Of a stretch of 64,000 bases of DNA, positions 1 to 45,378 are shown in pieces. A program made the position numbers and the translations under genes. Every line of letters starts with the position of its first letter. Position 1 is the stretch's first letter. Origin of the DNA: an uncultured Gammaproteobacteria bacterium (GTDB lineage Bacteria; Patescibacteriota; Microgenomatia; PFEM01; DATLAM01); the NCBI GenBank assembly GCA_964566925.1, contig CAZMIZ010000004.1, positions 35,951-99,950 on the forward strand, read 5' to 3'. The notes below the pieces were generated by a model. That model did no database searches and was not told the DNA's origin. It was given only the letters and a program-made list of their open reading frames with translations.

Positions 1-951
1 CAGGGTTATACCCGCTGAAATCATCCCAACCAGAAAAAAGGCTTGAAAAAAGATGTTTTTATATTTTCTGCCGTTCTCATGTCTTTCTGCTACCAATGGA
101 AACATCGCCATTGTAATGGCACCGGAGGCAAAGAAAATGATCTTCCCTAAAACACCAAGGGCAGAATAAAGACCTGCTTGATAAGGTTCCAAAAAATGCT
201 TTATCAAAATAATGTCACTCGTGTAGAGGCTGGTAAGACTAAGGACAACTATAAAGGCAGGGCCAGCATAATTAATTGTCTCCCGCCAGTTAACATTAAG
301 AGTCTTAGCTCTATGTTGAAAGAGAAACCTCAAAGGAAGAAATGAGACCAGGTAGGTTAAATAATCGGCAATGACAAAAGCCAAGACCGCCCCTAAAACA
401 GAAAAGCCAGCCTTGACCAAAAAAAGGGCGATTATCAATTTAGAAACAGCGGCCAACATGTTATTGGCTGAAAGAAATTTAAAGTTCAAAAAACCCTGTA
501 TCAACCCATTATTAATCGGCACCAAAAATCTGATTAAAAAGGTGCTGGCTACAAGGACAATCGCTTGATAGTTAGAAATATTTAAGAATTCAGCCACTGA
601 GCGATGGCCTAAAATAAAAAGAAGGAAAATACTCGCTCCTAAGAGTAAAGAATAGCGACTGAAACCTCGGAAAAGGGAATAGATGCGAGGATAATCTTTC
701 TTGGCCTTAAAAATCGAAGTAAACCGAACCACGACCGTATTAAGAGAAAGAGAAATAACCATACTGAAATAAGCCAAGGACATCAGAGAAACTAAAACAC
801 CATAATCAGCTGGACCCAACATCCGCCCCATGAAAAGGTGATATAAATAGTTGCTCAGGTTGACGGCAGTTGTCCCGACAAACAAGACTAGACTGCCGCT
901 AATAAGCTTGTTTTGAAGGAGTTTAAAAAAATGGTTTTTAATCAATTTCAT
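1..951 (-). CDS. Polysaccharide biosynthesis protein / Wzx-like MOP flippase. Partial: N-terminus in window, gene runs off the 5' edge.
   Basis: Minus-strand ATG at 951 (cat at 949-951). Translation MKLIKNHFFKLLQNKLISGSLVLFVGTTAVNLSNYLYHLFMGRMLGPADYGVLVSLMSLAYFS... is typical of PST/Wzx flippase N-termini. The ORF is open to the window edge. Confidence 0.6.
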   Translation of the reverse strand, partial: MKLIKNHFFKLLQNKLISGSLVLFVGTTAVNLSNYLYHLFMGRMLGPADYGVLVSLMSLAYFSMVISLSLNTVVVRFTSIFKAKKDYPRIYSLFRGFSRYSLLLGASIFLLFILGHRSVAEFLNISNYQAIVLVASTFLIRFLVPINNGLIQGFLNFKFLSANNMLAAVSKLIIALFLVKAGFSVLGAVLAFVIADYLTYLVSFLPLRFLFQHRAKTLNVNWRETINYAGPAFIVVLSLTSLYTSDIILIKHFLEPYQAGLYSALGVLGKIIFFASGAITMAMFPLVAERHENGRKYKNIFFQAFFLVGMISAGITL

Positions 952-969
952 TGGGTAAAATTTCGGCTA

Positions 970-2109
970 TTAAGCAATAAAGAAACCCCGAGTGAAAAGA
1001 GCGACCGAGATAATCAGCAGACCCCCGGCGATGAGCGGATAAACCGTCTTCAGCCAGCGGTATTTTTCTGACCAAAGACTAAGAAGAATGAAGCCAGGAA
1101 AGCAAACCAAGACATAACGAGGCAATGAAGAAAGTGTCCCGGTTAAAGTGGGCGTTAGATAGGCAAGAATCATAAAAGTGAAATAGGAGAGCCTTAAACG
1201 GAGATAAGCGAAAATTGAAAGAAATAAAAATAGGAGGCCAGTTAAAAATTCTAAAATAACGGTGAAATAAGTCGGAGTCATTTTCTCAACCGTCACCAAC
1301 ATCTTCAGATAGCGCCAAAAAACCTGATATAGAAGAATAATCTTGCCCCCAGTCCGCTGAGCTCCGAAAAACGGCTGAACATGAATGAAATAAAGAGGAT
1401 CACTCACCGTCTGTCTCAAGTACCCCATATAGATTAAAAGCCCCAAGCCAATCAAAAATAGAGGCAAAAGACTGGTTAATTTTTTCTTTTTCAATTTTTC
1501 GTTCTGCTGAAACCACTCGACCAGAAGAGCCGGAAATAAAAAAATGCCGATAAATCTGGTTGCGCTGGCCATCGCCCCTAAAACACCAGCCATACCCCAC
1601 TGACCTTTCCGAGCGGCATAAAAAGCGCCCAAAACCAGCAATAAAAATAGAGATTCCGTGTAAATACCGCCGAAGAAGAAGGAAGTAGGGAAAATAAGAA
1701 GGTAAAAAAGAACCCTCTTGGCTTGATTCTCCTTAAGATCTAATCTCGCTAGCTTATACAACAAAACCAGGGCAGCTAAAAAACAGAGGTGGGAAATCAA
1801 AAAACCTGAAAGGAGATAGTTTTTTACAAAAATCGCCAAAGAGCGCATCAGGTAGGGATAAAAAGGAAAAAAGGCCTGTTGAAACTGATAGTAGCCCCTC
1901 TCGGCGATGGTTAGATAATGAACGCCATCAAAATTTGCCCAAGACCAGAGGAAAGGATTTTTCAAATAGGCCCCCCTTCCTCCTCCTAGAAATCCCTCAC
2001 GCAAAGGGAAAAACTTGCTTCCCATCAAAGCAATCAAAATCAAAGCCACCCGCCAAATAATAAAGGCGGTTCCTATCCACTGGAGTAAAGCTTTAGTTTT
2101 CTTGGTCAT
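970..2109 (-). CDS. Polytopic membrane protein, possible GT-C mannosyltransferase (PIG-V/DUF2029-like)
   Basis: 379-aa ORF with multiple hydrophobic segments. Motif WANFDGVHYLTIAERGYYQFQQAFFPFYPYL resembles PIG-V/GT87-like mannosyltransferases. Confidence 0.45.
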   Translation of the reverse strand: MTKKTKALLQWIGTAFIIWRVALILIALMGSKFFPLREGFLGGGRGAYLKNPFLWSWANFDGVHYLTIAERGYYQFQQAFFPFYPYLMRSLAIFVKNYLLSGFLISHLCFLAALVLLYKLARLDLKENQAKRVLFYLLIFPTSFFFGGIYTESLFLLLVLGAFYAARKGQWGMAGVLGAMASATRFIGIFLFPALLVEWFQQNEKLKKKKLTSLLPLFLIGLGLLIYMGYLRQTVSDPLYFIHVQPFFGAQRTGGKIILLYQVFWRYLKMLVTVEKMTPTYFTVILEFLTGLLFLFLSIFAYLRLRLSYFTFMILAYLTPTLTGTLSSLPRYVLVCFPGFILLSLWSEKYRWLKTVYPLIAGGLLIISVALFTRGFFIA

Positions 2110-3151
2110 AAACTTTTTGGTAAACCTTAACTGTCTCTCGAGCGGTTTTCTCCCAACTAAACTTTTCTACTTGTTTTAACCCTTTCTTAACCAGTTTTTC
2201 TCTCAGTATTTTATCATTAAACACTTTTTTAATCCCCCGACCAATCTCTCTTCTCCGGTGGGGATTAACCATGACCGCGGCTCCCCCACAGATTTCTGGC
2301 AAGCTTGAAGTCTCGGCCGCAACTACCGGCGTTCCGCAAGCCATGGCCTCCAAAACTGGCAAACCAAAGCCTTCATAAAAAGAGGGTTGACAATAAACGG
2401 TGGCCAAATTATAGAGGGCCACTAAATCTTTTATTGGCACAAAGCCAATCCGGATAACATCAGGGTCCTTTCCATACAATTTAATTAATTGAACTAAAGG
2501 CTGATCTTCAATATGAGAAGAGTTAAAATTTTCCTGAGCGGCGGGTTTGCTAACAATGACAATTTTAATTTTCGCTTGTTTAGACGCCTCCACTAAACCT
2601 AAAACATTTTTATTATAATTAATATCGCCAACATAAAGAACAAACTTTTCTGGCAAGCTATATTTTTTCTTTAATCTTAATAATAACTTTCCCGACTTGA
2701 TTGGTTTAAACTCCTCTCCAGGCGCCAGATGAATAACCTTAATTCCTTTTTTAGGAAAACCGATAAATCGAACAATATCTTCTTTTGAATTTTGAGAATC
2801 AGTAATAATCGCCTTGGCTCCCTTTAAAGAATGCTTCTGGATCTGATATTTGGCGCTCCCCCGTAAGCCCTTAGGAAATTTATCAGGAAAAACCAGAGGA
2901 GTTAAATCATGAACGGTTACCACCGTCGGCCTAGACTTTTTTAAAGGTAAAGTCAACCAGAATAAGTCAAAGTAGGGATAGTGGATCAGATCAAATTGAT
3001 GATTGATGATTGATGATTGATGATTGATAAGAAAATACTCGTTTTTCTGATCATGTTTTTTTAATGATTCAACCAAGCACTTGGTATAAACTCCCACGCC
3101 CCGAAATTGATGGGAAGACTTTAGTGGAGAAATATCAATTGCCACTTTCAT
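2093..3151 (-). CDS. GT4 (group 1) glycosyltransferase
   Basis: Canonical GT4 C-terminal motif EGFGLPVLEAMACGTPVVAAETSSLPEICGGAAV. Contains an in-frame (ATTGATG)~5 repeat. Confidence 0.85.
   Translation of the reverse strand: MKVAIDISPLKSSHQFRGVGVYTKCLVESLKKHDQKNEYFLINHQSSIINHQFDLIHYPYFDLFWLTLPLKKSRPTVVTVHDLTPLVFPDKFPKGLRGSAKYQIQKHSLKGAKAIITDSQNSKEDIVRFIGFPKKGIKVIHLAPGEEFKPIKSGKLLLRLKKKYSLPEKFVLYVGDINYNKNVLGLVEASKQAKIKIVIVSKPAAQENFNSSHIEDQPLVQLIKLYGKDPDVIRIGFVPIKDLVALYNLATVYCQPSFYEGFGLPVLEAMACGTPVVAAETSSLPEICGGAAVMVNPHRRREIGRGIKKVFNDKILREKLVKKGLKQVEKFSWEKTARETVKVYQKVYDQEN
2995..3028. repeat. (ATTGATG)x~4.9 heptanucleotide tandem repeat inside the GT4 CDS (encodes INHQSSIINHQ)
   Basis: Read directly: attgatg attgatg attgatg attgatg attgat. 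Confidence 0.9.
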
Positions 3152-3165: not shown

Positions 3166-4653
3166 TTAAGGCTTTTCCTCGTACCACCATTTAACATAAC
3201 GGTCAGAGACATTTCTGGGTGTTTCTTGTTTCCAGTCATTAGCTAAAATCCCTGACTCTGAAGCCCGGGAAAAATCCATTAAAGAGTCGATCAAATGAAG
3301 GTCTTTTTTCTCTTTATCAATAAAAGGTAACTGGCAATCACCATCATCCAGACCTATTTTAAACCCATCATCGCTGTGGGCCTTCTTCAGAGAAAGCATC
3401 AATAAATAAGAATTTCTATTAAAAGCAGTGCCGCTGATTTCATTGCAATAATAGAAACTAAACTTTTCTCTTCCGGTTATCTCTTTCATGGTTTCTACCT
3501 CCTCATCGATTCTCTTGGTTAAATCATCCTCTTTCCAGGCACCACTTCTTAAAGAATTATTTATCAAACCAAACCATAAAACAGCCATTAAGAGAAAAAC
3601 TAGATAGAAATGTTGTTTTTTAACTTTTCGAATTAAGAGATCATAAAAAAACAAACCGGTAAAAATAAAAATATAGGGAGAAAAAAATTGGAGCCAACCT
3701 AAATATCTTTCGCCTCGCCAATAACGGACAACAATCACCTGGATAAGAAAACTGATGATTAACAGAAAGAGGGGTAAAGAAAGTTTTTTTCTTATCAGTC
3801 GGAGTAATAAAACCGCTCCCCCGCCAAACATTAAAAATAATCCCAGCCATAATGGGCCACCGGTAAGCCCTACCCAAGTCTGGGGGAAAAATTCAAAAAC
3901 AAACTTCAGCCAGCGCATACTCGTCCAGAATTGATATTGACGATGGAGGATAAAATCAAAAATTCCCCTGGTGTTAAACCAGTGATTGTTTAATTCAAAA
4001 AAGAGCATGGGCAAAGCCGCCAGAAAAAGGCCTAAAAGAGAAGCTAAAAAGAGACGAAGTCTTTTCTTGCCCAGGAAAAGCAACAAAAAAATCAAAGTTA
4101 AAAGCCCCGCTCCTTGATAATGAGTCAAAAGAGTAAAGCCAACTAGCCAACCTAACAAAGTCCCCCAAGGCCAATTTCTTTTTGGGCTAGAAACTTCAAG
4201 AAAAACTAACAAACAGAGAGAGCTGAGAAAGGCAATTAGAGAAGGGTTCGTCAGTAAGGCGCTGGTGATTATTAAGTTTGGCGAGAAGGTAGCCAAAACA
4301 GCTAAAATTAAACCTAATCTTTGGTCTTCTAAAAGAACGCCGATTCGATACATAATCAAAATAAGACTCAGAGAGGCTAAACCTAAGGCTATCCAGGGCG
4401 CCAACAAGGAGGGAATCAAAAATTTTAAAAAAATCAGAAAATACCAATACCAAGGTCCGATCGTTAAAGGAGCAATCGAGGCCCAAGGGCCAACTAAGGG
4501 CAGTTGTTTCTCTCTCCAACCGACATCGCTAACAAAATAATCCCGAGCGCTCTCCCAGCCCAAACTAATCCGACTTTCATAATTATGGAACCTAAGAAAA
4601 GCGCCAATGATTAAAAGAAGGCCAAGAATAAGCCAGCTTTTTTTAATTTTCAT
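3166..4653 (-). CDS. Polytopic membrane glycosyltransferase, ArnT/PMT (GT39/GT83)-like
   Basis: 495 aa. N-terminal motif GAFLRFHNYESRISLGWESARDY, then many TM segments and a soluble C-terminal domain. Confidence 0.5.
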   Translation of the reverse strand: MKIKKSWLILGLLLIIGAFLRFHNYESRISLGWESARDYFVSDVGWREKQLPLVGPWASIAPLTIGPWYWYFLIFLKFLIPSLLAPWIALGLASLSLILIMYRIGVLLEDQRLGLILAVLATFSPNLIITSALLTNPSLIAFLSSLCLLVFLEVSSPKRNWPWGTLLGWLVGFTLLTHYQGAGLLTLIFLLLFLGKKRLRLFLASLLGLFLAALPMLFFELNNHWFNTRGIFDFILHRQYQFWTSMRWLKFVFEFFPQTWVGLTGGPLWLGLFLMFGGGAVLLLRLIRKKLSLPLFLLIISFLIQVIVVRYWRGERYLGWLQFFSPYIFIFTGLFFYDLLIRKVKKQHFYLVFLLMAVLWFGLINNSLRSGAWKEDDLTKRIDEEVETMKEITGREKFSFYYCNEISGTAFNRNSYLLMLSLKKAHSDDGFKIGLDDGDCQLPFIDKEKKDLHLIDSLMDFSRASESGILANDWKQETPRNVSDRYVKWWYEEKP

Positions 4654-5515
4654 TCTGTTTTCCCCAATATTTAATGTAAGCCACTGTAAATCTTAAACCT
4701 GAAAACAAAGAAAAAACAAATCCCGGGAAGCCATCCATAAAACCTTTGTGGCGAAAGTAAGTCAAAAAAAACCAATGAAGCGGCTTGGCCAATAGATAAT
4801 CAAAACCGTTGATCAGTCCGATGTCAACCTTTTTCTCTTCCATTTCATTGACCATAAGATCGGTGTAGCGGTTAAACCTCAGACGATAACGGCTAAAATT
4901 AGGGTCAGCTAAATGAAGAAGGGCGTTTTGCAACCAACCTACTCTGCCATTAATCTTAATTTGTTCATGAACACTCTGGCACGGGAAACGAGCCTTTGAA
5001 TTTTTGACCAAACGGATCACTCCATCAGGGTAAACGCCACCATGGCGAAGATACCTGCCAAGAAAATAATTTAAGCGGGGGAGAAAAAAACCAACATACT
5101 CCCCCCTTTCTTGCCCAATCTTACCATCTCTTTTCTCAACAATCTCTTGATGCTTTAGAAACAACCGTCTTTGGGGCAATGTTTTTTGATATTCTTCGAT
5201 TTTGTCATCGTTCATCGAAAAAATCTTGAGAATCTCTTCAGCCAGTTTCGAGGTAACTCTCTCATCGGCATCCAGTTGCAAAATCCACTCTCCTTTGCAA
5301 GCATCAACCGCCATCTGTTTGTTGATATGAAAAATAGGCTTATTAGTAGTTTTAATGACCCTGGCCCCGTGTTTTCTGGCTATCTCTCTAGTTTTGTCTT
5401 GCGAGCTCCCATCAACAACAATCATCTCATCCGCCAGCTGGTGAACTGACTCCAAGCAAGGACCAATGTTTTCTTCCTCATTAAAAGTAGCGATGGCCAC
5501 CGAAATTTTTTTCAT
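4643..5515 (-). CDS. GT2 glycosyltransferase (paralog group with 19198 and 23539)
   Basis: MKKISVAIATFNEEENI...VVDGSSQDKT...LDADE, and C-terminal motif HGGVYPDGVIRLVKNSKARFPCQSVHEQ. Start taken at MKKISV; the ORF extends to 5527. Confidence 0.8.
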   Translation of the reverse strand: MKKISVAIATFNEEENIGPCLESVHQLADEMIVVDGSSQDKTREIARKHGARVIKTTNKPIFHINKQMAVDACKGEWILQLDADERVTSKLAEEILKIFSMNDDKIEEYQKTLPQRRLFLKHQEIVEKRDGKIGQERGEYVGFFLPRLNYFLGRYLRHGGVYPDGVIRLVKNSKARFPCQSVHEQIKINGRVGWLQNALLHLADPNFSRYRLRFNRYTDLMVNEMEEKKVDIGLINGFDYLLAKPLHWFFLTYFRHKGFMDGFPGFVFSLFSGLRFTVAYIKYWGKQNEN

Positions 5516-5589: not shown

Positions 5590-6849
5590 TCATTTCCTAG
5601 TATAGATATAGTAAAGATAAGATTGGGTCATTGATTCGCTGAATTTAACCTTTTCACCTCTATTAATTTTCTCTATCACTACTTGCCTATCCTTTATCAA
5701 GCCGCCTCTAGGGGAATCGGTCACCGATGTTAAAACGTTCCTGTAGGCCCAAAAAAGCCAAAATAGGATTATCAATATTGCAAGAGGCTTAACCCCTGAA
5801 CGCAAGATCCAAATTGCTAGCCAAGAAACTATATAAATTGCCAGAGGCATCGTAGGAAGGAAATAATAATCTGATAAGGGGCCGCTATAGAGGGTAAAAC
5901 CAACTAAAGTCACCCAAAACCAAAGAAAGAAAACTATCCCAACAAACCGACTGTTCTTGTTCTGAGGGAAGACGATAAATACAATCCCAAAAATTATTGG
6001 CAAAATATACTTTAAAAATTTTAAACTTTCGAAAAAAAGAGCAGAGTCAAACATTATTAAAGCGTCATTCAAACGATAGATCATAAACCGAAAATGAAAT
6101 CCATGATAATAGTATTTTAAGAATTCTTGAAACTTATAATAATCACTTAGCCCGTGTTGAAGCTCATGAATAATATTAGGGATAAAAAATAAACTAAAGG
6201 CCAATATCGATCCCGCCATCCAAGGAAATGCTTGCTTTTTATTCCTTATAAAAAACAAAGAGAGAACCACAATCGGAGGAATAAAAACGGCAGTAAAATG
6301 TAAATGAAAGAAAAATCCCGCCAATAAACCTAAGGGAATAAACCACCTATTATTGCCTTCGTATATTTTGAAAAGGCTGTAAAAAATCCAAACAGAGGCC
6401 ATCATCACTAAAGAAACATTCCAGGGAACCCGATCCATCGAGATAAGATATCGACAAAAAGCGTAAATAAAAGTTGAGAGATAGGCAACTTTTATTCCGA
6501 AGACTTCACGAGCCACCCAGAAAATTGAAATAATTGTTAATAAGCTGGCAAAAATTGAAAAATAACTTGAGGCAATGGGATCAAGGTTTGTCAAAAGATA
6601 AAAAGGGGCCAAAAGATAATAAAAGACAGGGCCGAGATGAAAATGACCAATTCCGGTTCTGGGCCCAATCAAAGGAAGTTTTTTATCAACAAGCATCTCC
6701 TTCATTGCCCAAGCATCCCTCGCTTGATCCCAGCCAAAGGGAGTTACCTTCTCGATGTTGTAAAATCTTAAAAAAAGACCTGCGGCAATCAAGAGGATAA
6801 TCGAAAAGGCTTTAAATTTTTCTAACAATTTTAATTGCTTCTTCGCCAT
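5590..6849 (-). CDS. Polytopic membrane glycosyltransferase, GT39/ArnT-like
   Basis: Internal start MAKKQLKLLEKFKAFSIILLIAAGLFLRFYNIEKVTPFGWDQARD is preferred. The 83-aa extension to 7098 would overlap the upstream gene by ~290 nt. Confidence 0.5.
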   Translation of the reverse strand: MAKKQLKLLEKFKAFSIILLIAAGLFLRFYNIEKVTPFGWDQARDAWAMKEMLVDKKLPLIGPRTGIGHFHLGPVFYYLLAPFYLLTNLDPIASSYFSIFASLLTIISIFWVAREVFGIKVAYLSTFIYAFCRYLISMDRVPWNVSLVMMASVWIFYSLFKIYEGNNRWFIPLGLLAGFFFHLHFTAVFIPPIVVLSLFFIRNKKQAFPWMAGSILAFSLFFIPNIIHELQHGLSDYYKFQEFLKYYYHGFHFRFMIYRLNDALIMFDSALFFESLKFLKYILPIIFGIVFIVFPQNKNSRFVGIVFFLWFWVTLVGFTLYSGPLSDYYFLPTMPLAIYIVSWLAIWILRSGVKPLAILIILFWLFWAYRNVLTSVTDSPRGGLIKDRQVVIEKINRGEKVKFSESMTQSYLYYIYTRK

Positions 6850-26548: not shown

Positions 26549-26622
26549 CTTATAAAGTATACCAAAATTCGATTCCTAACTGAAACTTTTAATTTAACAG
26601 GGTTCTCACCCCTAGGGCCTTT

Positions 26623-27054: not shown

Positions 27055-27055
27055 G

Positions 27056-37344: not shown

Positions 37345-38529
37345 TTATACCTCATTTAACTTTTTCTTCCCAATCAGATAGCTGATTAGCCCTAGCCCAA
37401 TCGGAAAAACAGTTAGCCAAAGTTTAATCGTCGGGACCGGCGGATCCCAATTCCCTAAATAAAGGAAAGGTGAATAGCGCAAAAGACTTCCTAGTGAAAA
37501 TCCAATTGTTAACCAAAAAATAAATCTTTCTTTTGCCATCAGAGCTAGAAAGGGCAGAACCCAAAGAAGATACCATGGCTGGAAGCCAATTTGATAAGTG
37601 GTCGCCAAAACCCCTAAAAATAGAAATAAAATACTAAGAGTGATTAATTTTTGGCAGTCAACTTTTTTTACTCTTAACTCTTGCCAGGCTACCAAGCCAA
37701 AAACTGGCAGGAGAACCACGGTGATATATTTAATCCCAGCCGAAAAAAGCCAAGCCAAAAAAGAAAAGAAAGCTTTTCTCTTTAACCACAAATAAAAAGC
37801 CAGTAAAGCAAAAAAGATCATCACCCCATCGTTATGGGCGCTGACTAAACTTTCTATTAACACCAGTGGGCTAAAAGCATAAAAGGCAAGGTTAAACATT
37901 TTTTGTTTAGGCGCAATAACCGCTGAAATTTCCCAAATTAACCAGAGTGTCCCTAAATAAAAACCAGCCATTAAAGTCTTAAAGGCAAGAAGCTGAAGCA
38001 GAAATTTCCCAAAGCCGGCCAGGAAAGGGATGATCGACAGGCCAATCCAGAGCGGAGGATAAATGCTAGGCCGATGCGTCCAATGCATAAAGCGAACCAT
38101 CGGGTCTTCCGGAAAATCAAGGGGTTTCACCTGATATGGGTTCTGCTGATAAAAAGCAACAATTTTAGCATCAAAGATATAATTGAAAACGTCGTGGGAA
38201 AAAGCTGGATAAGCAAAAAAGAGGATGACCATCGTCAAGATAATTAGGGGCCGCAGTTTTCGAGTTGGGAATTTATTTTTCTTAACCAGCCGTAAAATTA
38301 AAAGATAAAAAGAGAAAAGTAAGCCGAGAATCAGCAAATAAATCAAGGTTGAAAGAGGCCGCTGGAAATAACCAAGATACATAAAGGCCTTTTCTAATCT
38401 CTGCCAGACCGAAACTTGAGAAAGGGTAAGATTTAAATCTATTTGGGTAAATGAATAAAGAAAAAGAGAGAAAACAGTTGCCAGCCAGCCGAAAATGATC
38501 AACTTAATTCTCGTGGGCGTTTTGGTCAT
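37345..38529 (-). CDS. Polytopic membrane protein, unknown (DUF2029/GT-C-like?)
   Basis: 394 aa, all hydrophobic segments. Confidence 0.4.
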   Translation of the reverse strand: MTKTPTRIKLIIFGWLATVFSLFLYSFTQIDLNLTLSQVSVWQRLEKAFMYLGYFQRPLSTLIYLLILGLLFSFYLLILRLVKKNKFPTRKLRPLIILTMVILFFAYPAFSHDVFNYIFDAKIVAFYQQNPYQVKPLDFPEDPMVRFMHWTHRPSIYPPLWIGLSIIPFLAGFGKFLLQLLAFKTLMAGFYLGTLWLIWEISAVIAPKQKMFNLAFYAFSPLVLIESLVSAHNDGVMIFFALLAFYLWLKRKAFFSFLAWLFSAGIKYITVVLLPVFGLVAWQELRVKKVDCQKLITLSILFLFLGVLATTYQIGFQPWYLLWVLPFLALMAKERFIFWLTIGFSLGSLLRYSPFLYLGNWDPPVPTIKLWLTVFPIGLGLISYLIGKKKLNEV

Positions 38530-38531: not shown

Positions 38532-39290
38532 CTAATCGTAGAGACCCCTTAAATCATTTATTTTAACCCGTAAAATTTCTTTAAACATTTCTTGAGATTC
38601 CCGGAAAAATTTCCTCTCTTTTCCCTCGGCAATATCTTGATCCTGCCACTGAATCGGCACCTCGGCAATTTTATAGCCTTTTTTCTGAGCAATAAACAGG
38701 AGTTCAACATCCCAAGCCCCTACTCGCCAACCCTTGACTTTTTTGCCTTCTTTAAAAATCAACAACTGCTTAAAAAGATCTTTGCCGACCTGGTTGCTGA
38801 AGGCTTTAAAGCCACACTGGGTGTCAGCGATTTCCCGAAGAAGCAAGGTTTGTCTGACCAGACGGAAAGCATTGGAAGCCACTTGCCGAAACAAGGAGTA
38901 GCCGGTTCGCCTCTGCCCTCTAGAGCCAATAACAACCGGAAAGCCTTTTTTGAAGAAGGGTAAAAGTTTTTCGATTTGGTTAATAGGCGTTGATTGATCC
39001 ATATCACTAAATAGAATAATCTTCCCTTTAGCCTCGATCACTCCGGCTTTAACAGCATAAGGTTTACCAGAGTGAGGATTTTTAAAAAGCTTAAATCGCG
39101 GATGATCTTTAATAAAACTCTCAATTATCTTTCGGCTTTTATCAGTCGAGCCGTCATCAGAAATAATTACTTCACTGGAATAACTTTGTTTTTCGAGATA
39201 ACCATCGATGCCTTCAAGAACGCCTCTTTTAAGGTTTTTCTCTTCGTTATAGCAAGGAATAACCACTGATAAAAATATATTTTTTTTCAT
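38532..39290 (-). CDS. GT2 Dpm1-like polyprenol-phosphate glycosyltransferase
   Basis: MKKNIFLSVVIPCYNEEKNL...VIISDDGSTDKS...FSDMDQSTP...IADTQCGFKAF. The internal start gives an ATGA overlap; the ORF extends to 39410. Confidence 0.75.
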   Translation of the reverse strand: MKKNIFLSVVIPCYNEEKNLKRGVLEGIDGYLEKQSYSSEVIISDDGSTDKSRKIIESFIKDHPRFKLFKNPHSGKPYAVKAGVIEAKGKIILFSDMDQSTPINQIEKLLPFFKKGFPVVIGSRGQRRTGYSLFRQVASNAFRLVRQTLLLREIADTQCGFKAFSNQVGKDLFKQLLIFKEGKKVKGWRVGAWDVELLFIAQKKGYKIAEVPIQWQDQDIAEGKERKFFRESQEMFKEILRVKINDLRGLYD

Positions 39291-40792
39291 TCTTCGGTAT
39301 AATGACTCAATTTCATCACCGTAATCCCTCCGGGAGCAGGCCAACTGCCAACAATCTCGGCTCGGCCAAACCCGGCAATTTCCCAAAGGGAATGACCAAG
39401 AGGCTGGCAATCAGAAACCTCGCAGACTATCAAAAGCTGATCGGTAACCGTTTTTCTTTCAGGATCATTCTGGGGGTTTTCAATCACCACCGGCCGATTT
39501 CCCCAAATTTCTAAAAAATAGCGATAGGCATGATCAGAATTCTGCCTGGTTATAAGGGCAAAGTTAAAAGGCTCCCCATTAGCCTCCCTCAGAATGATGG
39601 CGGCAATCTTTTTTGTCTGATCAAGCTGGCGATTGGGAGTATAACGGAAAGGAACTCCCTTGAGATTGACGGCCACCAGAACAACTAAGAAAAGACTGGC
39701 CGCCATTCGACCTATTGATGATTTCGAAGAAGAAGAAAAGGTAAGACCGGCGAGTAGAAACGGCAGAGGAAACATAAACCCCAAATAGTAATCATAAATT
39801 CCTCTTTGATAAAAACCAAAAAGGCCAACGCCAAAAATTAACCACAAACCAAAAAGAGAAAGGGCTAGAAACCTCTTCTTTTTCCTTGAGGTTATCCAAA
39901 AAAAGATAAAAGTAGCGAGGGTAACCACCAAGGTTATTTGGGCAATGAAAACATAATTGTTGGTCATCAGGCGATTAAAAAGGCGAAAAAGAACATCGCT
40001 AATGGTTGGCCAAAACTGATCCGCCAAAAAACCTGTTTCTTCGCCGTAAAGAAAAAACTGGAAAAAGGTTTTAAAGTTGGGAAATTGATGGCGAAATTCA
40101 AATAAAAGAAAAGGAGACCAGCCGACCAAGAATCCTAGAATGCCTAGAAAATAATATTTTAGATTCTCAATCTTTCGGGTAAAAATCAGGAGATAAAGAA
40201 CAATTACCGGCACCAAAAAGGTGGCCAGATAGTGAAGCTGAAAGGCAATTCCCATTAAGAGACCCACCCCTCCCAGAAGTTTTAATTTTTTCCGAGCAAC
40301 CACCAGCCAAAGAAGATAAAGAGTTAAGAGACAGAAGAAAGGCATCAGGTTAGGATTCCACGAAGAACGGGAATAAGCAAGAATCACCGGCGGCAGAGCA
40401 TAAAGGCCAGCTGCCACTAAGCCTGTCAAGGGATTGAAAAAATCACGACCCACTTTCCAAACTAGGAAAACAGTCGCCACCCCAAAAAGAGCGACCATCA
40501 CCGCCGGCCCTACCGGATCAAGACGGAAAAGCCATAGAAAAGGAAGCATAAAATAGTAATAAATCGGTCCCAAGAAAAAACCGCCCACGCTGGCTGTCGG
40601 ACCAAGAAGAGTCAATTTATGGTCAACCAGAATTCTTTTAACCACTAAAACGTCCCGGCCCTCATCACCCAAAAAAGTCATGTAATCGGCAATCCGATAA
40701 AGGCGCAAAAAGGCAGCCACTCCCAAAATAGCTAACAAAATTGTTGCTTCAAGCTTGTTCTTTTTAAGCCAGCTAATTAATTTTTCCCTCAT
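39287..40792 (-). CDS. GT39/GT83 ArnT-like polytopic glycosyltransferase
   Basis: LRLYRIADYMTFLGDEGRDVLVVKRILVDHKLTLLGPTASVGGFFLGPIYYY. Confidence 0.6.
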   Translation of the reverse strand: MREKLISWLKKNKLEATILLAILGVAAFLRLYRIADYMTFLGDEGRDVLVVKRILVDHKLTLLGPTASVGGFFLGPIYYYFMLPFLWLFRLDPVGPAVMVALFGVATVFLVWKVGRDFFNPLTGLVAAGLYALPPVILAYSRSSWNPNLMPFFCLLTLYLLWLVVARKKLKLLGGVGLLMGIAFQLHYLATFLVPVIVLYLLIFTRKIENLKYYFLGILGFLVGWSPFLLFEFRHQFPNFKTFFQFFLYGEETGFLADQFWPTISDVLFRLFNRLMTNNYVFIAQITLVVTLATFIFFWITSRKKKRFLALSLFGLWLIFGVGLFGFYQRGIYDYYLGFMFPLPFLLAGLTFSSSSKSSIGRMAASLFLVVLVAVNLKGVPFRYTPNRQLDQTKKIAAIILREANGEPFNFALITRQNSDHAYRYFLEIWGNRPVVIENPQNDPERKTVTDQLLIVCEVSDCQPLGHSLWEIAGFGRAEIVGSWPAPGGITVMKLSHYTEE

Positions 40793-41490
40793 AACTTTCT
40801 TCTTAGCTTCATCAATTCAATCAGGCCGCTCAAGCCTACTTTCAAACTGGCTCCAGTTGCCCTGCCTGATTCCCGAGGATAATGATGAACTCCAATCTCT
40901 ACTATTTTAAAACCGGCTTTCTTAGCTTTAATTAAAAGCTCGCTAGAAATAAAAGGGCCCCTCTCTGATTCCAATCGGGGAATTCGATTAATCACCTCTC
41001 TGCTGATCAATTTAAAACCACAATCAATATCTCTTACTTTTAAACCAAATATCAAAGAAACAATCAACTCCCAAACTTTTGATGCCCAAATCCGATATTG
41101 AGGCACTGCTCTTTTTAAATAGTAACCAATTACTAAGTCGGCCTTTGTTTTCTTTTTGGTTTCCAGAAAGTTAGTAATTTCAGAAAAATCAAACTGGCCA
41201 TCAGCATCAATAAGAACAGTTAGGTCGTAAGAAGAATGATAAAGGCCGGATTTAACCGCCGCTCCATAACCCCGATTGGGAGTATGGGCAATCATTCGAA
41301 TCCGCTTCTCTTCGGCGATGAGTCTTTCCACTATCTCGCCAGTTTTGTCGGTTGAGCCATCATTAACCACAATAATCTCCCATTTCTGGGCCACATCAGG
41401 AAGGATTCTGGTTGCCCGGGTGACGGTTTTCTTAATATTGGCTTCTTCATTGTAGGCAGGAAAGAAAACCGAAAGTTCAGCAACCTTCAT
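40789..41490 (-). CDS. GT2 dolichyl/polyprenyl-phosphate mannose (or hexose) synthase, Dpm1-like
   Basis: LSVFFPAYNEEANI...IIVVNDGSTDKT...VLIDADGQFD. Confidence 0.8.
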   Translation of the reverse strand: MKVAELSVFFPAYNEEANIKKTVTRATRILPDVAQKWEIIVVNDGSTDKTGEIVERLIAEEKRIRMIAHTPNRGYGAAVKSGLYHSSYDLTVLIDADGQFDFSEITNFLETKKKTKADLVIGYYLKRAVPQYRIWASKVWELIVSLIFGLKVRDIDCGFKLISREVINRIPRLESERGPFISSELLIKAKKAGFKIVEIGVHHYPRESGRATGASLKVGLSGLIELMKLRRKL

Positions 41491-41529: not shown

Positions 41530-42735
41530 TTAGCTGATCTTTTTCTGGAGCCAACCGAAGAGTTTGGATTTTCTGGTTTTCCAAATAAAGGTGGTATAAG
41601 CAAAATAGTTCCAAATCAGGCCAAAACCAATTCCCATAATAAAGAAGAAGCGATAACCTTCATCTCCCCAGTATGGTTTTAAAACACCCGAAAAAAGACC
41701 ATCCATTAAGCCACCGAAAAACAAAGTACCTAATTCAATCGTTACTCCCTGAATAATAATCGCCCCGACCGAAGTTAAATTAAATTGGAAAAATTTAACT
41801 GGAACCTTTCTTAATGAGGTAATCCTTTTGGCCGCAAAAGTCCAGAAATTATTAAGAGTAAAGTTCGAGATAATCGCCATTTCCGCTCCCAACATCCCGG
41901 AAACCGAAGGCCGGAATCCTAAACGAACAAAAAGCTCCAGACCAATCGTGTTAACAATAAAACCAATAAAACCCACAATCGCGAATTTGATAAACTGAGC
42001 CGAGCGCTCAATTCTAATCTTGGTAGCATTAATCACCGTTTCAATAACGTCTTTGATAAACTGAAGATTAAAGCCAACTTTGGTTTCGCCTGCCCGACGC
42101 TCGCCATAGATAGCCGGAATCTCACAAAATTTGGCTCCGGTTTTAGACAGCTCATAAATCATTGTCGGCTGGATAACAAAACCTTTAACATTTAGCCGGC
42201 TAAAATTGACTTTTTCTAAAACCCCTTTAACCCGAATGGCTTTAAAGTTGCCGGCTAAATCTTTAACCTCTCTAATGCCGGCCCAATAGTGGTTAATCAA
42301 AGTGTTGGAAACAAAGTGAGTTAATTTTCGAAACCAGTCAAAATTATCCTCGCCGCCAGGAACATGGCGTGAAGGCACGACCACATCATAACCTTCTTCA
42401 ATTTTTTTGAGCATCTGGGGAATATATTTGGGGTGCCATTGAAAATCAGCATCATTAGGAATTACTACCTCGGCTTTTAATTTCTTGACTGCATATTGAT
42501 AGCCCTTAATCAAAGAGATGCCCAACCCCCGAGGGGTGAGAAGAAGAAAAAGGTTCTTTCTGGTTTTGGCCATCTTTTTAACCAAATCACCTGTCCCGTC
42601 AGGCGAATGACTATCCACCACTAAATTGATAAATTCATGCTGGGGTAATTTCTTGGCCAACTTCTCTAGATATACAACCATTGGCCTAATGTTTTCTTTC
42701 TCGTTGTAGGTAGAAAGAAGATGGACGATCCGCAT
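41530..42735 (-). CDS. GT2 (Dpm1/Ppm1-like) fused to a C-terminal GtrA-like 4-TM domain
   Basis: N-terminus HLLSTYNEKENI...VVDSHSPDGT...IPNDADFQ. C-terminus FIKFAIVGFIGFIVNTIGLELF...AIISNFTLNNFWTFA is the GtrA signature. Confidence 0.75.
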   Translation of the reverse strand: MRIVHLLSTYNEKENIRPMVVYLEKLAKKLPQHEFINLVVDSHSPDGTGDLVKKMAKTRKNLFLLLTPRGLGISLIKGYQYAVKKLKAEVVIPNDADFQWHPKYIPQMLKKIEEGYDVVVPSRHVPGGEDNFDWFRKLTHFVSNTLINHYWAGIREVKDLAGNFKAIRVKGVLEKVNFSRLNVKGFVIQPTMIYELSKTGAKFCEIPAIYGERRAGETKVGFNLQFIKDVIETVINATKIRIERSAQFIKFAIVGFIGFIVNTIGLELFVRLGFRPSVSGMLGAEMAIISNFTLNNFWTFAAKRITSLRKVPVKFFQFNLTSVGAIIIQGVTIELGTLFFGGLMDGLFSGVLKPYWGDEGYRFFFIMGIGFGLIWNYFAYTTFIWKTRKSKLFGWLQKKIS

Positions 42736-42737
42736 TT

Positions 42738-43691
42738 TTAGACCCTTTCTCGCCAGTAGTCCAGCAAGTCTCTTAAGGTTTTTTCAAAAGGAATTCTTGG
42801 TTGCCAACCTGTCCTTTTTCTAAATTGAGAGTAGTTGCCCTCTAAAATAGGAACATCCGAAGGCCTCATCCGGGCCGGATCCTTTTTTACCTCAATTCTG
42901 GTTTTAGCCATACCGAGGAGCAAATTTAAAACTTCTTTAATGGTAATCGCTTTCCCGGAACAAAGATTGTAAACCTCACCCGGCTCCCCTTTCTGAACTG
43001 CCAATAAGTAGCCCCGGACAATGTCGCGAACGTCAGTAAAATCCCGCTTAGCCTCAAGGTTGCCGACCATCAGCACCGGCTTTTTCTTGCCTTTTTCGAT
43101 CTGGGCAATCTGCTTAGCAAAATTGGAACAGACAAAGGATTCTCCTCTTCTTGGCCCGGTGTGATTAAAAGCCCGGGTACGAATAATTTTCATTTGGTAG
43201 CTTTGAAAATATTGGTAGCCCAACATGTCCATCGCCACTTTGGAAACCGCGTAAGGCGAAAGTGGCCGAAGAGGGTTGGCTTCTTTAACCGGGATTTCAC
43301 TGGGTTTAATTAAGCCATACTCTTCCGAAGAACAGGCAATTTGAATTCTTGGTTTAATCTCTAGTTTTCTGACGGCTTCAAAAAGATGGACCGAACCGAT
43401 GAGGTTAATCTCCAAAGTATTGGCGGGGCTCGCCCAAGAAGTGGGGACAAAAGATTGGGCAGCCAGATGGAAAATAAAATCAGGCTTAACGGTGTGAATC
43501 ACCTCATAAACACTATGGGAATCTAAGATATCAGCGTCGAAAAGTTTTATTTTCTGGCTTAGATGGTCAATGTTTTCGGTTTTACTCCGAGGCCGGGCAG
43601 TACCGAAAACCTGATAACCATTCTTGAGCAGAAGTTCGCTTAGGTGGCTACCGGCAAAACCGGTGATGCCCGTAATTAAAACTTTTTTCAT
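42738..43691 (-). CDS. NAD(P)-dependent sugar epimerase/dehydratase (SDR; GDP-/UDP-sugar 4-reductase/epimerase-like)
   Basis: MKKVLITGITGFAGSHLSELLL is a Rossmann GxxGxxG motif. It also has the YAVSK catalytic motif. Confidence 0.7.
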   Translation of the reverse strand: MKKVLITGITGFAGSHLSELLLKNGYQVFGTARPRSKTENIDHLSQKIKLFDADILDSHSVYEVIHTVKPDFIFHLAAQSFVPTSWASPANTLEINLIGSVHLFEAVRKLEIKPRIQIACSSEEYGLIKPSEIPVKEANPLRPLSPYAVSKVAMDMLGYQYFQSYQMKIIRTRAFNHTGPRRGESFVCSNFAKQIAQIEKGKKKPVLMVGNLEAKRDFTDVRDIVRGYLLAVQKGEPGEVYNLCSGKAITIKEVLNLLLGMAKTRIEVKKDPARMRPSDVPILEGNYSQFRKRTGWQPRIPFEKTLRDLLDYWRERV

Positions 43692-44971
43692 CGACCAACT
43701 CCTTCGTAGATAAAGCCAAGTTTTTCTAACTTTTTTCGATTATAAACGTTTCTGCCATCAACTACAAGTGAAGTTTTCATTAATTTCTTGACTTTTTGGA
43801 AATCCAGTTCCTGATACTCCTTCCACTCTGTTACTAAAAGGAGTGCATTTGCTCCTTTCAGCGCTTGATAAGGGTCAGAAAAAAATCTCACCCCTTTTAA
43901 AATCTTTTTCGCTTCCGGAATGGCCGCCGGATCACAAGCCCGAACCTGAGCTCCTCTTTTCTTTAAGCCTTTAACTACGTAAATTGAGCGGGCGGCGCGC
44001 ATATCCGAAGTCTCCGGCTTAAAAGCAAGGCCTAAGACAGCCACTTTTTTACCTTTAATGGTTCCGCCACAAAGTCGAACGGCTTTTCCAAGAAAATAAT
44101 CAATTTGGGCCTGATTAGCTGCCTGAACCGCTTTTAAAATTTGAAAATCATATTTTTCTCTAGCGGCCAACCTAATCAGGGCTTCAACGTCTTTAGGGAA
44201 ACAAGCCCCACCATAACCAAGTCCGGCTCTAAGAAAATCAGGACCCACTCTTTTATCCATTCCTAAACCTGCCATCACCTTATTAACATCCGCCCCAAAA
44301 CGATCGCAAAGAACTGCAATGGCGTTAGCAAATGAGATCTTAGTAGGCAAAAAGGCATTGGCCGCATATTTAATCATTTGGGCGCTGGCCGGATCGCAAA
44401 TCAATCTTTTTCCTGGAAGCTTCTGGTGTAACTTGAGCAATTCCTTGGCCACCGAATTCTTGTTAGTACCAATAATCACCCGATAAGGATTTAAGGTGTC
44501 TTCGATTGCCCTACCTTCAGCCAAAAATTCTGGCACTGAAGCAAGCTCAAAATTCGATCGCGTATGTTTTTTTATCCATTTTTCAAGCTCTTGGTTAATA
44601 CCTGGAGGAACGGTACTTTTAAGAACAATAATCGCTGGCTTCTTAAGGTTCTCGGCAATCGATTTCGTTGCCGAATAAACAAAATTTAAATCGATTTCGC
44701 CGTTTTTATTAGGAGTGCCCACACAAACAAAAATTACCTCCGCTCCAGGGATAGCTTCTCGATAATGACTGGTAAATTTAAGCCGGTTCGCTTTAAGATT
44801 CTTGGTAATTAACTTTTCCAACCCAGGCTCGTAAAAAGGGACTTTTCCTTGAGAAAGTTTTTTTATCTTTTGACGATCAATCTCCACTACCCAAACTTGA
44901 TGGCCAAGATCAGCAAAAACCCCAGCGGTGACTAAACCAACAAAACCAGCGCCAATGACCGCTAAATTCAT
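43688..44971 (-). CDS. ugd: UDP-glucose/GDP-mannose dehydrogenase family (UDP-glucose 6-dehydrogenase-like)
   Basis: MNLAVIGAGFVGLVTAGVFADLGHQV and GGACFPKDVEAL are the catalytic Cys motif. Confidence 0.85.
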   Translation of the reverse strand: MNLAVIGAGFVGLVTAGVFADLGHQVWVVEIDRQKIKKLSQGKVPFYEPGLEKLITKNLKANRLKFTSHYREAIPGAEVIFVCVGTPNKNGEIDLNFVYSATKSIAENLKKPAIIVLKSTVPPGINQELEKWIKKHTRSNFELASVPEFLAEGRAIEDTLNPYRVIIGTNKNSVAKELLKLHQKLPGKRLICDPASAQMIKYAANAFLPTKISFANAIAVLCDRFGADVNKVMAGLGMDKRVGPDFLRAGLGYGGACFPKDVEALIRLAAREKYDFQILKAVQAANQAQIDYFLGKAVRLCGGTIKGKKVAVLGLAFKPETSDMRAARSIYVVKGLKKRGAQVRACDPAAIPEAKKILKGVRFFSDPYQALKGANALLLVTEWKEYQELDFQKVKKLMKTSLVVDGRNVYNRKKLEKLGFIYEGVGR

Positions 44972-45378
44972 TCAGCTTTTTTTAAATATTCTATTAACTC
45001 TTTAATATCATAAGCGATGTAATCAAAAAAACCAGCTAGCCATTCCGAAACCTTTCCTTCCTCTCCAACCCTAGTTTCTTCAACCTTTAACCCGTAAATC
45101 TTTTTACCTAATCCTTTAGCGTAACCTGCTTCTAAATACGCGCCCCGGGTGTCAGACAAAATAGCAATTAAAAATTCGCAGTCCCTAATCATTCTCAACT
45201 CTTTCTCCAATGTCAGTTTTTCTGATTTTTTTTGGTTTTCTTGGGGCAAGAAAACATCGAGGCCATTTTCGATTAATTTTTGAGCAATCTTCTTATTCCT
45301 TAATAATTTTTTTCGGGAAAAGGAGTATCCGTCTAGTCTTTTGGTAGAGGCCATCGGGCTTGCTAGGTAAATAGCCAT
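44968..45378 (-). CDS. Nucleoside 2-deoxyribosyltransferase-like (PF05014-like) small protein
   Basis: 136 aa. VFLPQENQ and GAYLEAGYAKGLGKKIYGL resemble the NDT catalytic-Glu region. ATGA overlap with ugd. Confidence 0.4.
   Translation of the reverse strand: MAIYLASPMASTKRLDGYSFSRKKLLRNKKIAQKLIENGLDVFLPQENQKKSEKLTLEKELRMIRDCEFLIAILSDTRGAYLEAGYAKGLGKKIYGLKVEETRVGEEGKVSEWLAGFFDYIAYDIKELIEYLKKAE

Follow-up and report, generated by a model that had tools for sequence, protein, structure and literature searches.

The 64,000-nucleotide stretch of contig CAZMIZ010000004.1 (assembly GCA_964566925.1, forward-strand positions 35,951 to 99,950; the whole stretch is called the window below and is numbered from its first letter) comes from a Microgenomates-type bacterium of the candidate phyla radiation (CPR/Patescibacteria) and carries an array of more than 45 kb, in which 17 genes for membrane glycosyltransferases of the GT-C type lie within 45 kb among glycosyltransferases of families GT2 and GT4, flippases and sugar-nucleotide enzymes. 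With moderate confidence, the locus is read here as the core of a lineage-conserved envelope-glycan assembly system, i.e. a fixed multi-step pathway that would build a complex envelope glycoconjugate outside the cytoplasm. Such a build of a heteroglycan is favored because about four candidate donor synthases stand beside 17 GT-C enzymes and because the GT-C paralogs are ancient and syntenic. The original prediction, made without database searches, had already placed GT-C machinery beside GT2, GT4, flippase and sugar-nucleotide genes, which the Pfam and NCBIfam inventory bears out, and every family that it named (PMT_2, PMT, YfhO, GtrA, Glycos_transf_2, Polysacc_synt, DUF2079, and PTPS_related) is present by Pfam.

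Twelve of the 17 GT-C-type genes (numbered as in the table below) exceed the curated Pfam cut-offs of PMT/PMT_2, YfhO, PTPS_related, DUF2079, or Mannosyl_trans2. These are g02 with Mannosyl_trans2 (PIG-V-like; among its more than 2,300 homologs, some are named by their source "Gpi18-like mannosyltransferase"), g06, g28, and g31 with PMT_2, g07 and g08 with both PMT and PMT_2, g09, g13, and g27 with YfhO, g24 and g26 with PTPS_related, and g25 with DUF2079 (E=6.5e-53), the last also aligning with a PMT_2-type family at an hhalign probability of 91%. Three further genes, g04, g11, and g29, are placed in GT-C by paralogy or profile comparison (BLASTP/hhalign): g11 reaches 19.1 bits with PTPS_related, which is under the cut-off, and matches g26 at E=2e-95, while g04, which lacks a Pfam match, is related to g31 (E=1e-13) and g06 (E=1e-11), has its ortholog, 51% identical, in the same place in one relative (locus L085), and carries a conserved E34 after its first transmembrane helix (TM1). 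For g29, a weak match to the MptA model TIGR03459 (E=1.5e-9) is accompanied by an hhalign probability of 93% to a PMT_2-type family, and a gene of similar size and comparable position in locus L086, whose orthology to g29 is not established, carries the MptA_B_family domain (PF26314). The remaining two, g16 and g23, have no Pfam match and owe their placement to AlphaFold2 models searched with Foldseek. YfhO and DUF2079 are presumably members of the GT-C Pfam clan. The same clan (CL0111) includes PMT, PMT_2, PTPS_related, and Mannosyl_trans2 (PMC7801869).

All 17 proteins have between 5 and 12 predicted transmembrane helices, and acidic residues are conserved after TM1 in every GT-C family for which there is an alignment. 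An aspartate or glutamate is found 10–25 residues after TM1 in the alignments of YfhO, PMT (DE), PTPS, the PMT_2-type proteins, g28 (VDE), and g29; the motif reads DE in g07 and g08, VDE in g28, and HFVDEDE in g23, and in g16 it corresponds to the invariant D137, with g02 and g25 showing such residues in single sequences only. This is the position described for the catalytic motif of GT-C enzymes (PMC8035078, PMC7801869), and the loop that bears it would face outward. The Pfam cut-offs passed by twelve proteins, the fold searches for g16 and g23, and the conserved acidic motif thus identify the large membrane proteins, at the level of sequence and fold comparison, as GT-C-type glycosyltransferases and not as transporters. 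The YfhO-type and PTPS-type proteins have in common a C-terminal domain of about 110 residues (BLASTP), which in g09 matches the PgfM1/PgfM2 models of S. mutans; a profile search of the PDB sequences returned no solved YfhO structure.

By their predicted structures, g16 and g23 represent two families of GT-C fold for which Pfam has no model. The 648-residue g16, which has no match in Pfam or NCBIfam, was modeled from an alignment of 36 homologs with a predicted local distance difference test score (pLDDT) of 93, and a Foldseek search of the PDB with it returned only GT-C enzymes at ranks 1 to 17 (STT3 at E=7.5e-8, AglB, PglB, DPY19, AftA, ArnT, AftD). Its C-terminal globular domain matches that of archaeal AglB at E=0.02–0.05, and its TM-scores to oligosaccharyltransferases are about 0.47–0.52, which is no better than to AftA. 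Within the family D137, H168, and R417 are invariant and H141 and R192 are conserved at 90% or above, and an exhaustive profile search of metagenomes found at least 1,253 cluster representatives at E≤1e-30. The WWDxG motif is absent from all 44 array and flanking proteins (g01–g44, g16 included) by regular-expression search, and the Pfam scan of g16 gave no STT3 match at E≤10. Many members of the family (P0197, P0203, and others) are fusions of 1,000–1,160 residues, whose N-terminal ~500 residues have no Pfam match. In one protein from another source, P0212 (1,639 residues), an N-terminal Wzx flippase 49% identical to g20 is joined to a g16-like C-terminal half, and this fusion suggests that g16 acts on the product flipped by g20, with the proviso that P0212 stands alone and may be an artifact of gene calling. 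The other protein, g23 (502 residues from ATG 28564), was modeled at a pLDDT of 89, and its leading PDB matches are likewise all GT-C. Among the further matches of the two models are AftA, AftB, and PimE. Structure prediction had been proposed originally as a check on the GT-C fold, and for these two proteins it returned GT-C enzymes and no transporter with a significant score.

The conservation of the locus was followed by scanning one genome per GTDB species with an alignment of the three YfhO paralogs as the query. No close relative was found, the closest protein being 40% identical to g27 (the first sequence of the alignment), and the best loci all came from metagenome-assembled genomes (MAGs) of the Microgenomates group of the CPR (Chisholm-, Levy-, Gottesman-, Shapiro-, and Daviesbacteria and "Patescibacteria group"). 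Open reading frames (ORFs) were called in all the loci, and each was matched by BLASTP to a gene of the window. Thirty loci (up to 22 kb each) carry 4–10 GT-C-like genes, and many of them keep the gene order of the window, e.g. g29-g28-PTPS-PTPS-GT2-Flp-GT2-GT2-GT2-YfhO-GT4-YfhO-GT2 in L010, L016, and L066 or GT2/GtrA-PMT_2-GT2-g29-PMT_2-...-YfhO-PTPS in L004 and L022, with trmD directly next to the cluster both here and in L028 and L032. The Pfam-labeled gene tables of GCA_016184225.1 (Daviesbacteria), GCA_040960625.1, and two JGI contigs agree with this synteny, the contigs of the four relatives being three of 0.6–0.86 Mb and one of 45 kb. YfhO loci from outside the CPR (Chloroflexota, Acidobacteriota, and other phyla) hold the YfhO homolog and at most one other GT-C gene, so that the 17 GT-C genes in 45 kb of the array stand against one or two per ~22 kb. 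Many of the MAGs titled "uncultured Gammaproteobacteria" or "Pseudomonadales" (L003–L009, L014–L017, L019, L025, and others) carry the CPR-type syntenic cluster, and several "binchicken" records titled "uncultured Gammaproteobacteria" bear the CPR-type block; these taxonomic labels are probably wrong.

In an all-against-all BLASTP comparison the paralogs are 34–36% identical among the YfhO-type proteins g09, g13, and g27, 30–35% among the PTPS-type g11, g24, and g26, 26–28% among the PMT_2-type g04, g06, and g31, and 44% between g07 and g08, while orthologs in other genomes reach 66% for g13, 56% for g11, 52% for g26, and 50% for g09. With the exception of g07 and g08, most paralogs are nearer to their own orthologs elsewhere than to each other, from which the GT-C duplications appear to be mostly older than the divergence of these organisms. 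Paralogs retained for so long point to distinct functions that have been kept and argue against recent amplification or shuffling. The system had been pictured originally as a combinatorial one, which does not agree with paralogs that are old (26–44% identical) and mostly have their own orthologs, in an order that is the same in about 30 related genomes; age and order together speak for a fixed multi-step pathway over a mix-and-match one. The same conservation bears on the possibility, which we regard as very unlikely, of an ordinary large O-antigen, capsule, or exopolysaccharide cluster of the Wzx/Wzy type. Two Wzx-like flippases together with GT2, GT4, and sugar-nucleotide genes are what such a cluster would contain, but loci for O-antigen and capsule are hypervariable, GT-C genes making up about half of an array would be atypical for them, and the window scans found no priming phosphoglycosyltransferase, Wzy, chain-length regulator, LytR-CpsA-Psr (LCP) ligase, LtaS/Tag enzyme, Rgp component, or ABC exporter, nor did the Pfam scans find a match to Bac_transf, Glycos_transf_4, Wzy_C, or Wzz among the window's proteins. 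The precomputed Pfam labels of the four relatives' neighborhoods, too, include no priming phosphoglycosyltransferase, Wzy, chain-length-regulator, LCP, teichoic-acid, TagB/F, LtaS, Rgp, or ABC-exporter gene.

The source is evidently a metagenome assembly. A chimeric origin of the array had been named at the outset as a reason to doubt it, as had the misreading of transporters as glycosyltransferases. No point in support of either was found, and both together are given hardly any credence: three separately assembled contigs of run SRR14817123 (Logan) match the window with 100% identity over 1–2345, 19021–22626, and 42384–48099 (2.3, 3.6, and 5.7 kb), the composition is uniform, the gene order is shared with the MAG loci of relatives, and the fold searches point to GT-C enzymes. 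A chimeric assembly is therefore excluded as far as sequence goes, and the comparative genomics proposed along with the prediction has instead revealed a block conserved in Microgenomates-type MAGs.

The stretch from 1 to 45378 is filled by 35 minus-strand genes and one doubtful plus-strand ORF, as established from the ORF listing, a review of start codons, and translation of the left edge. The count of 35 takes in a gene for a GCN5-related N-acetyltransferase (GNAT) and a 5′-complete flippase gene that leaves the window at its left end; of the 36 consecutive co-oriented genes originally counted, 35 are thus co-oriented and the 36th is the doubtful plus-strand ORF. Genes overlap at 20 of the 34 junctions, 11 of them by four nucleotides (10 ATGA, in keeping with the many ATGA overlaps noticed before, and one TTGA), the coding fraction is about 98.5%, and the only gaps of any size are those of 125 nt between the GNAT and flippase genes and 507 nt in the stretch with the plus-strand ORF. 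The interruption at 25923–27055, which had been seen correctly, is the sole loose spot and holds the co-oriented GNAT gene and the plus-strand ORF of 143 codons. The limits of 1 and 45378 did not hold, as the array continues past the left end of the window and picks up again beyond the plus-strand trmD with rmlD, an rmlC-like gene, rmlB, and a gene for a NAGPA-domain protein. Two relatives' contigs anchored on a g02 homolog carry, beyond the equivalents of g02 and the second flippase, more GT2, GT4, methyltransferase, and epimerase genes, and the window probably cuts the array off at its left as in these contigs.

Co-orientation alone is weak support for an operon-like unit because the whole window has only four plus-strand ORFs and its GC skew is negative nearly throughout; the real support comes from the tight junctions and the conserved synteny. 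The membrane-protein genes have a high AT skew, which reaches +0.29, and an unusual disparity of composition between the two strands has been reported for a published Microgenomates genome (PMC7143001). The G+C content is about 41% in the window and 0.37 to 0.43 along the array. Across the interruption (25.8–28.8 kb) promoter-like sites occur at chance level and the excess of terminator-like sites lies mostly within the coding sequence of g23, yielding nothing usable, and scans of the 64-kb window for tRNA genes and Rfam families found none. The start of g06 may be ATG 6921 or ATG 6849, giving an overlap with the end of g07 of 110 or 38 nt; in locus L014 the longest ORFs at the corresponding spot overlap too, by about 98 nt.

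In the mechanism established for Gram-positive wall polymers, which combines a GT-A enzyme, a flippase, and a GT-C enzyme, a GT2 protein loads a sugar on undecaprenyl or dolichyl phosphate, a GtrA or Wzx protein flips it, and the GT-C enzyme transfers the sugar to an acceptor outside (PMC8035078). All of these components are encoded together in the array, with the candidate GT2 synthases g33, g10, g30, and g32, two flippases (g01 and g20), which are of the multidrug/oligosaccharidyl-lipid/polysaccharide (MOP)/Wzx type, and the 17 GT-C enzymes. The best named relatives of the four small GT2 proteins are polyprenyl-phosphate-sugar synthases: g33 has a Glycos_transf_2 domain fused to a GtrA_DPMS_TM domain (the only GtrA present) and matches the dolichol-phosphate-mannose synthase (DPMS) of P. 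furiosus (5mlz) at E=1.3e-29 over residues 2–328 as well as ArnC structures, and the best NCBIfam matches of g10, g30, and g32 are ArnC, DPM, AglJ, PpgS, or PgfS. By analogy, the GT-C enzymes would use polyprenyl-phosphate-sugar donors outside the membrane, as these co-encoded DPMS/ArnC-like proteins and flippases suggest circumstantially.

In the model proposed here, sugar donors would be supplied by a UDP-glucose dehydrogenase, an Rmd-like reductase, RmlB, an RmlC-like enzyme, and RmlD, with GalE encoded further to the right in the window. Single sugars would be put on polyprenyl phosphate at the inner membrane face by g10, g30, g32, and g33, and the seven other cytoplasmic glycosyltransferases, five of family GT2 (g05, g12, g15, g17, and g19) and two of GT4 (g03 and g14), would make a lipid-linked primer or oligosaccharide, following which both MOP/Wzx flippases, together with the GtrA domain, would carry the lipid-linked intermediates to the outer face. 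There, as many as 17 GT-C enzymes, each of them presumably dedicated to one linkage or acceptor, would elongate, branch, and decorate the glycan outside the membrane, yielding a product anchored to a lipid or the wall, with a polymer, a lipoglycan, or a protein as the possible acceptor; the PMT-like members may in addition O-glycosylate secreted proteins. Donors, the side of the membrane for each step, the order of the steps, and the acceptor are what we infer in this scheme. What was observed directly is which genes and folds are present, how tightly the genes are coupled, and that they are conserved in relatives.

It has to be noted that several points weigh against this model. All four donor-synthase assignments score under the NCBIfam equivalog cut-offs, and neither the window nor the four relatives' neighborhoods contain a primer transferase, Wzy, LCP ligase, or lipid-anchor enzyme. 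In other bacteria, moreover, enzymes of the PMT family and of the YfhO/Pgf type glycosylate proteins, and the present system could, in whole or in part, equally well have a protein as acceptor. The main alternative is dedicated protein O-glycosylation, in which the GT-C enzymes would move sugars from polyprenyl-phosphate-sugars or from a Wzx-flipped oligosaccharide to Ser/Thr-rich secreted, sortase-anchored, pilus, or S-layer proteins, and for which actinobacterial Ppm1/Pmt and streptococcal Pgf are working examples. Consistent with it, g07 and g08 match both PMT and PMT_2, the C-terminus of g09 resembles PgfM1/PgfM2, the best structural matches of g16 are oligosaccharyltransferases (the AglB C-terminal domain included), and about 9 kb to the right of the array a sortase is encoded with three secreted proteins with Pro/Thr-rich linkers, one of which has LADTG. 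We nevertheless consider this model rather unlikely. The known O-mannosylation and Pgf systems need one or two GT-C enzymes, not 17 with seven cytoplasmic glycosyltransferases and two Wzx proteins; WWDxG is lacking, and the window scans found no PglL/Wzy_C-type O-oligosaccharyltransferase domain; and the Pro/Thr-rich neighbors, lying outside the array, are suggestive only.

Among the sugar-nucleotide genes of the preferred envelope-glycan pathway, g34 encodes a short-chain dehydrogenase/reductase (SDR) closest to Rmd, the GDP-6-deoxy-D-lyxo-4-hexulose reductase that forms GDP-D-rhamnose (2pk3, E=3e-91); its assignment as a UDP-xylose synthase was rejected, as it matches UDP-glucuronate decarboxylases at only about E=1e-23. 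The UDP-glucose 6-dehydrogenase g35 is also above the cut-off of an NDP-sugar dehydrogenase model. At the head of the array, the gene for g36 (Nuc_deoxyrib_tr-like) is coupled by ATGA to that of g35, and in relatives Pribosyltran and PNP_UDP_1 genes adjoin the g02 homolog (L086 11130–12475; L087 11179–11982), i.e. genes of the nucleoside-salvage type recur within the glycosylation cluster. The single-pass membrane protein g18, with an extracytoplasmic domain and no family match, has orthologs within the same GT2 block in L007, L008, L021, and L029 and may be an accessory or acceptor-binding subunit, and the GNAT protein g21 possibly N-acetylates a sugar or amino sugar. The plus-strand ORF g22 (TTG start) has no Pfam match and no homolog in any of 87 related loci and is probably not a gene, or else strain-specific; two other readings, a flippase of the GtrA kind and a helper of the GacJ kind, were rejected for want of support, the ORF also showing no similarity to the GtrA domain of g33.

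Genes of the array and of its continuation beyond trmD (TM, transmembrane helices; PTPS, PTPS_related; residue counts in aa)
Gene	Assignment	Position	Strand	Basis
g01	MOP/Wzx-type flippase, N-terminal 317 aa, leaves window at left	1..951	-	Polysacc_synt_3 E=4e-15, Polysacc_synt E=1e-13; Logan contig L082 extends it to 420 aa
g02	GT-C, PIG-V/Gpi18-like (Mannosyl_trans2)	970..2109	-	PF04188 36.3 bits vs cut-off 22.4; PMT_2 weak; 7 TM
g03	Cytoplasmic GT4	2093..3151	-	Glycos_transf_1 E=4.5e-28
g04	GT-C-like, divergent PMT_2-type	3166..4653	-	BLASTP to g31, g06; 9 TM
g05	GT2, paralog group g05/g15/g19	4643..5515	-	Glycos_transf_2 E=1.4e-19; paralogy
g06	GT-C, PMT_2	5590..6921	-	PMT_2 38 bits vs 26.1
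g07	GT-C, PMT/PMT_2 (GT39/GT83-like)	6812..8434	-	PMT_2 E=6e-16, PMT E=3.5e-10; weak ArnT 5ezm match; D34-E35 after TM1
g08	GT-C, PMT/PMT_2	8431..10065	-	Pfam; 44% identical to g07
g09	GT-C, YfhO	10062..12524	-	YfhO E=4e-32; 12 TM; conserved D70
g10	GT2, candidate polyprenyl-phosphate-sugar synthase	12527..13255	-	Glycos_transf_2; AglJ, PpgS, dolichyl-P-hexose transferase under cut-offs
g11	GT-C, PTPS_related-like	13243..14919	-	19.1 bits; BLASTP to g26; conserved D35
g12	GT2 (Glyco_tranf_2_3 type)	14916..15833	-	Pfam
g13	GT-C, YfhO	15820..18156	-	YfhO E=4e-24; 66%-identical ortholog in L009
g14	GT4	18137..19228	-	Pfam
g15	GT2	19198..19956	-	Pfam
g16	GT-C-fold, family without Pfam model	20021..21967	-	AlphaFold2 model and Foldseek
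g17	GT2, rhamnosyltransferase-like	21964..22872	-	Pfam, NCBIfam
g18	N-terminal TM helix and extracytoplasmic domain	22880..23554	-	Syntenic orthologs
g19	GT2	23539..24474	-	Pfam
g20	MOP/Wzx-type flippase	24471..25922	-	Polysacc_synt_3 E=4e-54; 12 TM
g21	GNAT acetyltransferase	26048..26548	-	Acetyltransf_1 E=3e-18
g22	Doubtful small ORF	26623..27054	+	3 hydrophobic segments
g23	GT-C-fold, second family without Pfam model	27056..28564	-	AlphaFold2 model and fold search
g24	GT-C, PTPS_related/PMT_2	28647..30374	-	Both above cut-offs
g25	GT-C-like, DUF2079	30364..31782	-	DUF2079; hhalign
g26	GT-C, PTPS_related	31779..33425	-	E=2.8e-11
g27	GT-C, YfhO	33422..35833	-	E=7e-30
g28	GT-C, PMT_2	35839..37335	-	E=4e-10; VDE after TM1
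g29	GT-C-like, MptA/B-type	37345..38529	-	Weak TIGR03459; hhalign
g30	GT2, candidate polyprenyl-phosphate-sugar synthase	38532..39290	-	PgfS, ArnC under cut-off (NCBIfam)
g31	GT-C, PMT_2	39287..40792	-	E=1e-14
g32	GT2, candidate polyprenyl-phosphate-sugar synthase (ArnC/DPM-like)	40789..41490	-	Pfam, NCBIfam
g33	GT2 with GtrA/DPMS TM domain, dolichol-P-mannose-synthase-like	41530..42735	-	Pfam; 5mlz
g34	SDR sugar-nucleotide enzyme, Rmd-like	42738..43691	-	2pk3
g35	UDP-glucose 6-dehydrogenase	43688..44971	-	Three UDPG_MGDP_dh domains
g36	Nucleoside 2-deoxyribosyltransferase-like, first gene of array	44968..45378	-	Pfam; ATGA junction to g35
Post-trmD genes	rmlD, rmlC-like, rmlB (dTDP-rhamnose path), NAGPA-domain protein	46157..49905	-	Pfam, NCBIfam

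Downstream of the rml genes and on the same strand (48592–51938) follow genes for a NAGPA (phosphodiester glycosidase) domain protein, a TPM-domain protein, LemA, and an RNase H-like protein. The sortase gene (55281–55850) lies among genes for secreted proteins with Pro/Thr-rich linkers (54286–59990), which include a CAP-domain protein, a Cys-rich fn3 protein, and a 704-residue repeat protein, with two small Gly/Ser/Asn-rich secreted proteins alongside. The Cys-rich fn3 protein ends in LADTG, a hydrophobic segment, and KRSA, which resembles a class-E sortase sorting signal. It is plausible that the secreted proteins of this region are targets of O-glycosylation.

Members of the CPR have very small genomes, appear to live attached to other microbes, and have a surface chemistry of which little is known. 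In the full-text literature searched, which lies outside subscription journals and supplementary tables, no glycosylation supercluster of the CPR is described; a complete Microgenomates genome was reported to have "29 genes of glycosyl transferases" (PMC7143001), and glycosylation in Saccharibacteria has been called "unexplored" (PMC11623550). The individual parts of the array are of known kinds and the underlying chemistry is probably conventional for GT-C enzymes; what is new is the occurrence of 17 GT-C genes in one conserved operon-like array of a lineage with reduced genomes and, in addition, two GT-C-fold families not covered by Pfam. One group of the CPR keeps an array of more than 45 kb that is dominated by extracytoplasmic GT-C enzymes, which for a chromosome of 0.76 Mb, as found in one relative, would be about 6% of the genome. 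Because the array is conserved in relatives, the lineage probably builds an elaborate surface glycan, for which the array offers a concrete and testable gene set. A more far-reaching proposal, made here tentatively and judged possible at most, is that Microgenomates-type CPR bacteria spend about 5–6% of their sub-megabase genomes on a surface heteroglycan or lipoglycan peculiar to the lineage, mostly built outside by at least 17 GT-C enzymes, at least two of which belong to undescribed families, with g16 acting like an oligosaccharyltransferase without WWDxG, to which the neighboring Wzx flippase would pass its product. If true, the glycan coat would be a central but so far unexplored factor in the interactions of these ultrasmall bacteria with hosts and phages.

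Among known systems, the three-component glycosylation systems (CsbB/GtcA/YfhO, GtlA/GtlB, CsdAB/CD/EF, and GacIJKL) and streptococcal Pgf have, by homology, the same three parts as the array, and the array could be taken as a bundle of such systems working independently, of the kind known from Listeria, Bacillus, and Lactococcus, each putting one sugar on a backbone (teichoic-acid-like or rhamnan) that is made elsewhere. Small GT2 genes do alternate with GT-C genes, three of YfhO type and several of PMT_2 type; rmlB, the rmlC-like gene, and rmlD are adjacent; and the mechanism is a reviewed one (PMC8035078). Yet only about four candidate donor synthases face 17 GT-C genes; GtrA occurs only fused to g33, and no known backbone-polymer gene is nearby, with TagB/F, LtaS, and an Rgp-type ABC exporter missing from the window and the four relatives' neighborhoods alike. 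Characterized Firmicutes strains, furthermore, are listed with at most three such GT-C enzymes, usually scattered, against 17 in one array here (PMC8035078, Table 2), and the same figure of at most three per strain in characterized teichoic-acid, O-antigen, and cell-wall-polysaccharide systems upholds the view that the locus goes far beyond ordinary clusters. This alternative is accordingly considered improbable.

The Ugd-ArnABCDT pathway with ArnT/ArnC, and the rhizobial RgtA–E enzymes, resemble the locus in that a UDP-glucose dehydrogenase, an ArnC-like GT2 protein, and an ArnT-like PMT_2 GT-C protein co-occur here too, but neither ArnA nor ArnB was found here and the GT-C genes are far more numerous than in these lipid A and core modifications. 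The presence of a sortase presumably indicates a monoderm-type envelope without lipid A. With STT3, AglB, and PglB, the best Foldseek matches of its model, g16 shares the GT-C fold, and its gene stands among GT2 and GT4 genes and adjoins that of a Wzx flippase; it differs in lacking WWDxG, the catalytic motif in the C-terminal domain of that family, and in having no STT3 match in Pfam.

The closest parallel in logic is the synthesis of lipomannan, lipoarabinomannan, and arabinogalactan in mycobacteria and corynebacteria (Ppm1, PimA/B, PimE, MptA/B/C, EmbA/B/C, AftA–D), where cytoplasmic GT4 enzymes and a DPMS-type synthase are followed by many linkage-specific GT-C enzymes that draw on few polyprenyl-phosphate-sugar donors. 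Traits of the array that recall lipomannan synthesis are g33 (DPMS-like), g29 (MptA/B-like), g02 (PIG-V-like), and the presence of GT4 enzymes. In actinobacteria the genes are dispersed, unlike the single array of the window, and the Pfam scans of the window gave no match to the Arabinose_trans (Emb/Aft), UbiA, or DprE families; because a gene of the Emb/Aft family or of the decaprenylphosphoryl-arabinose pathway is missing, the resemblance is best described as functional analogy and not as membership. To our knowledge, these actinobacterial glycans are the only well-studied case in which a polymer is built outside the membrane by many GT-C enzymes from few lipid-phosphate-sugar donors, and the array would add a second, non-actinobacterial case from nature of a glycan made by many GT-C enzymes, of use in comparative enzymology and in glycoengineering.

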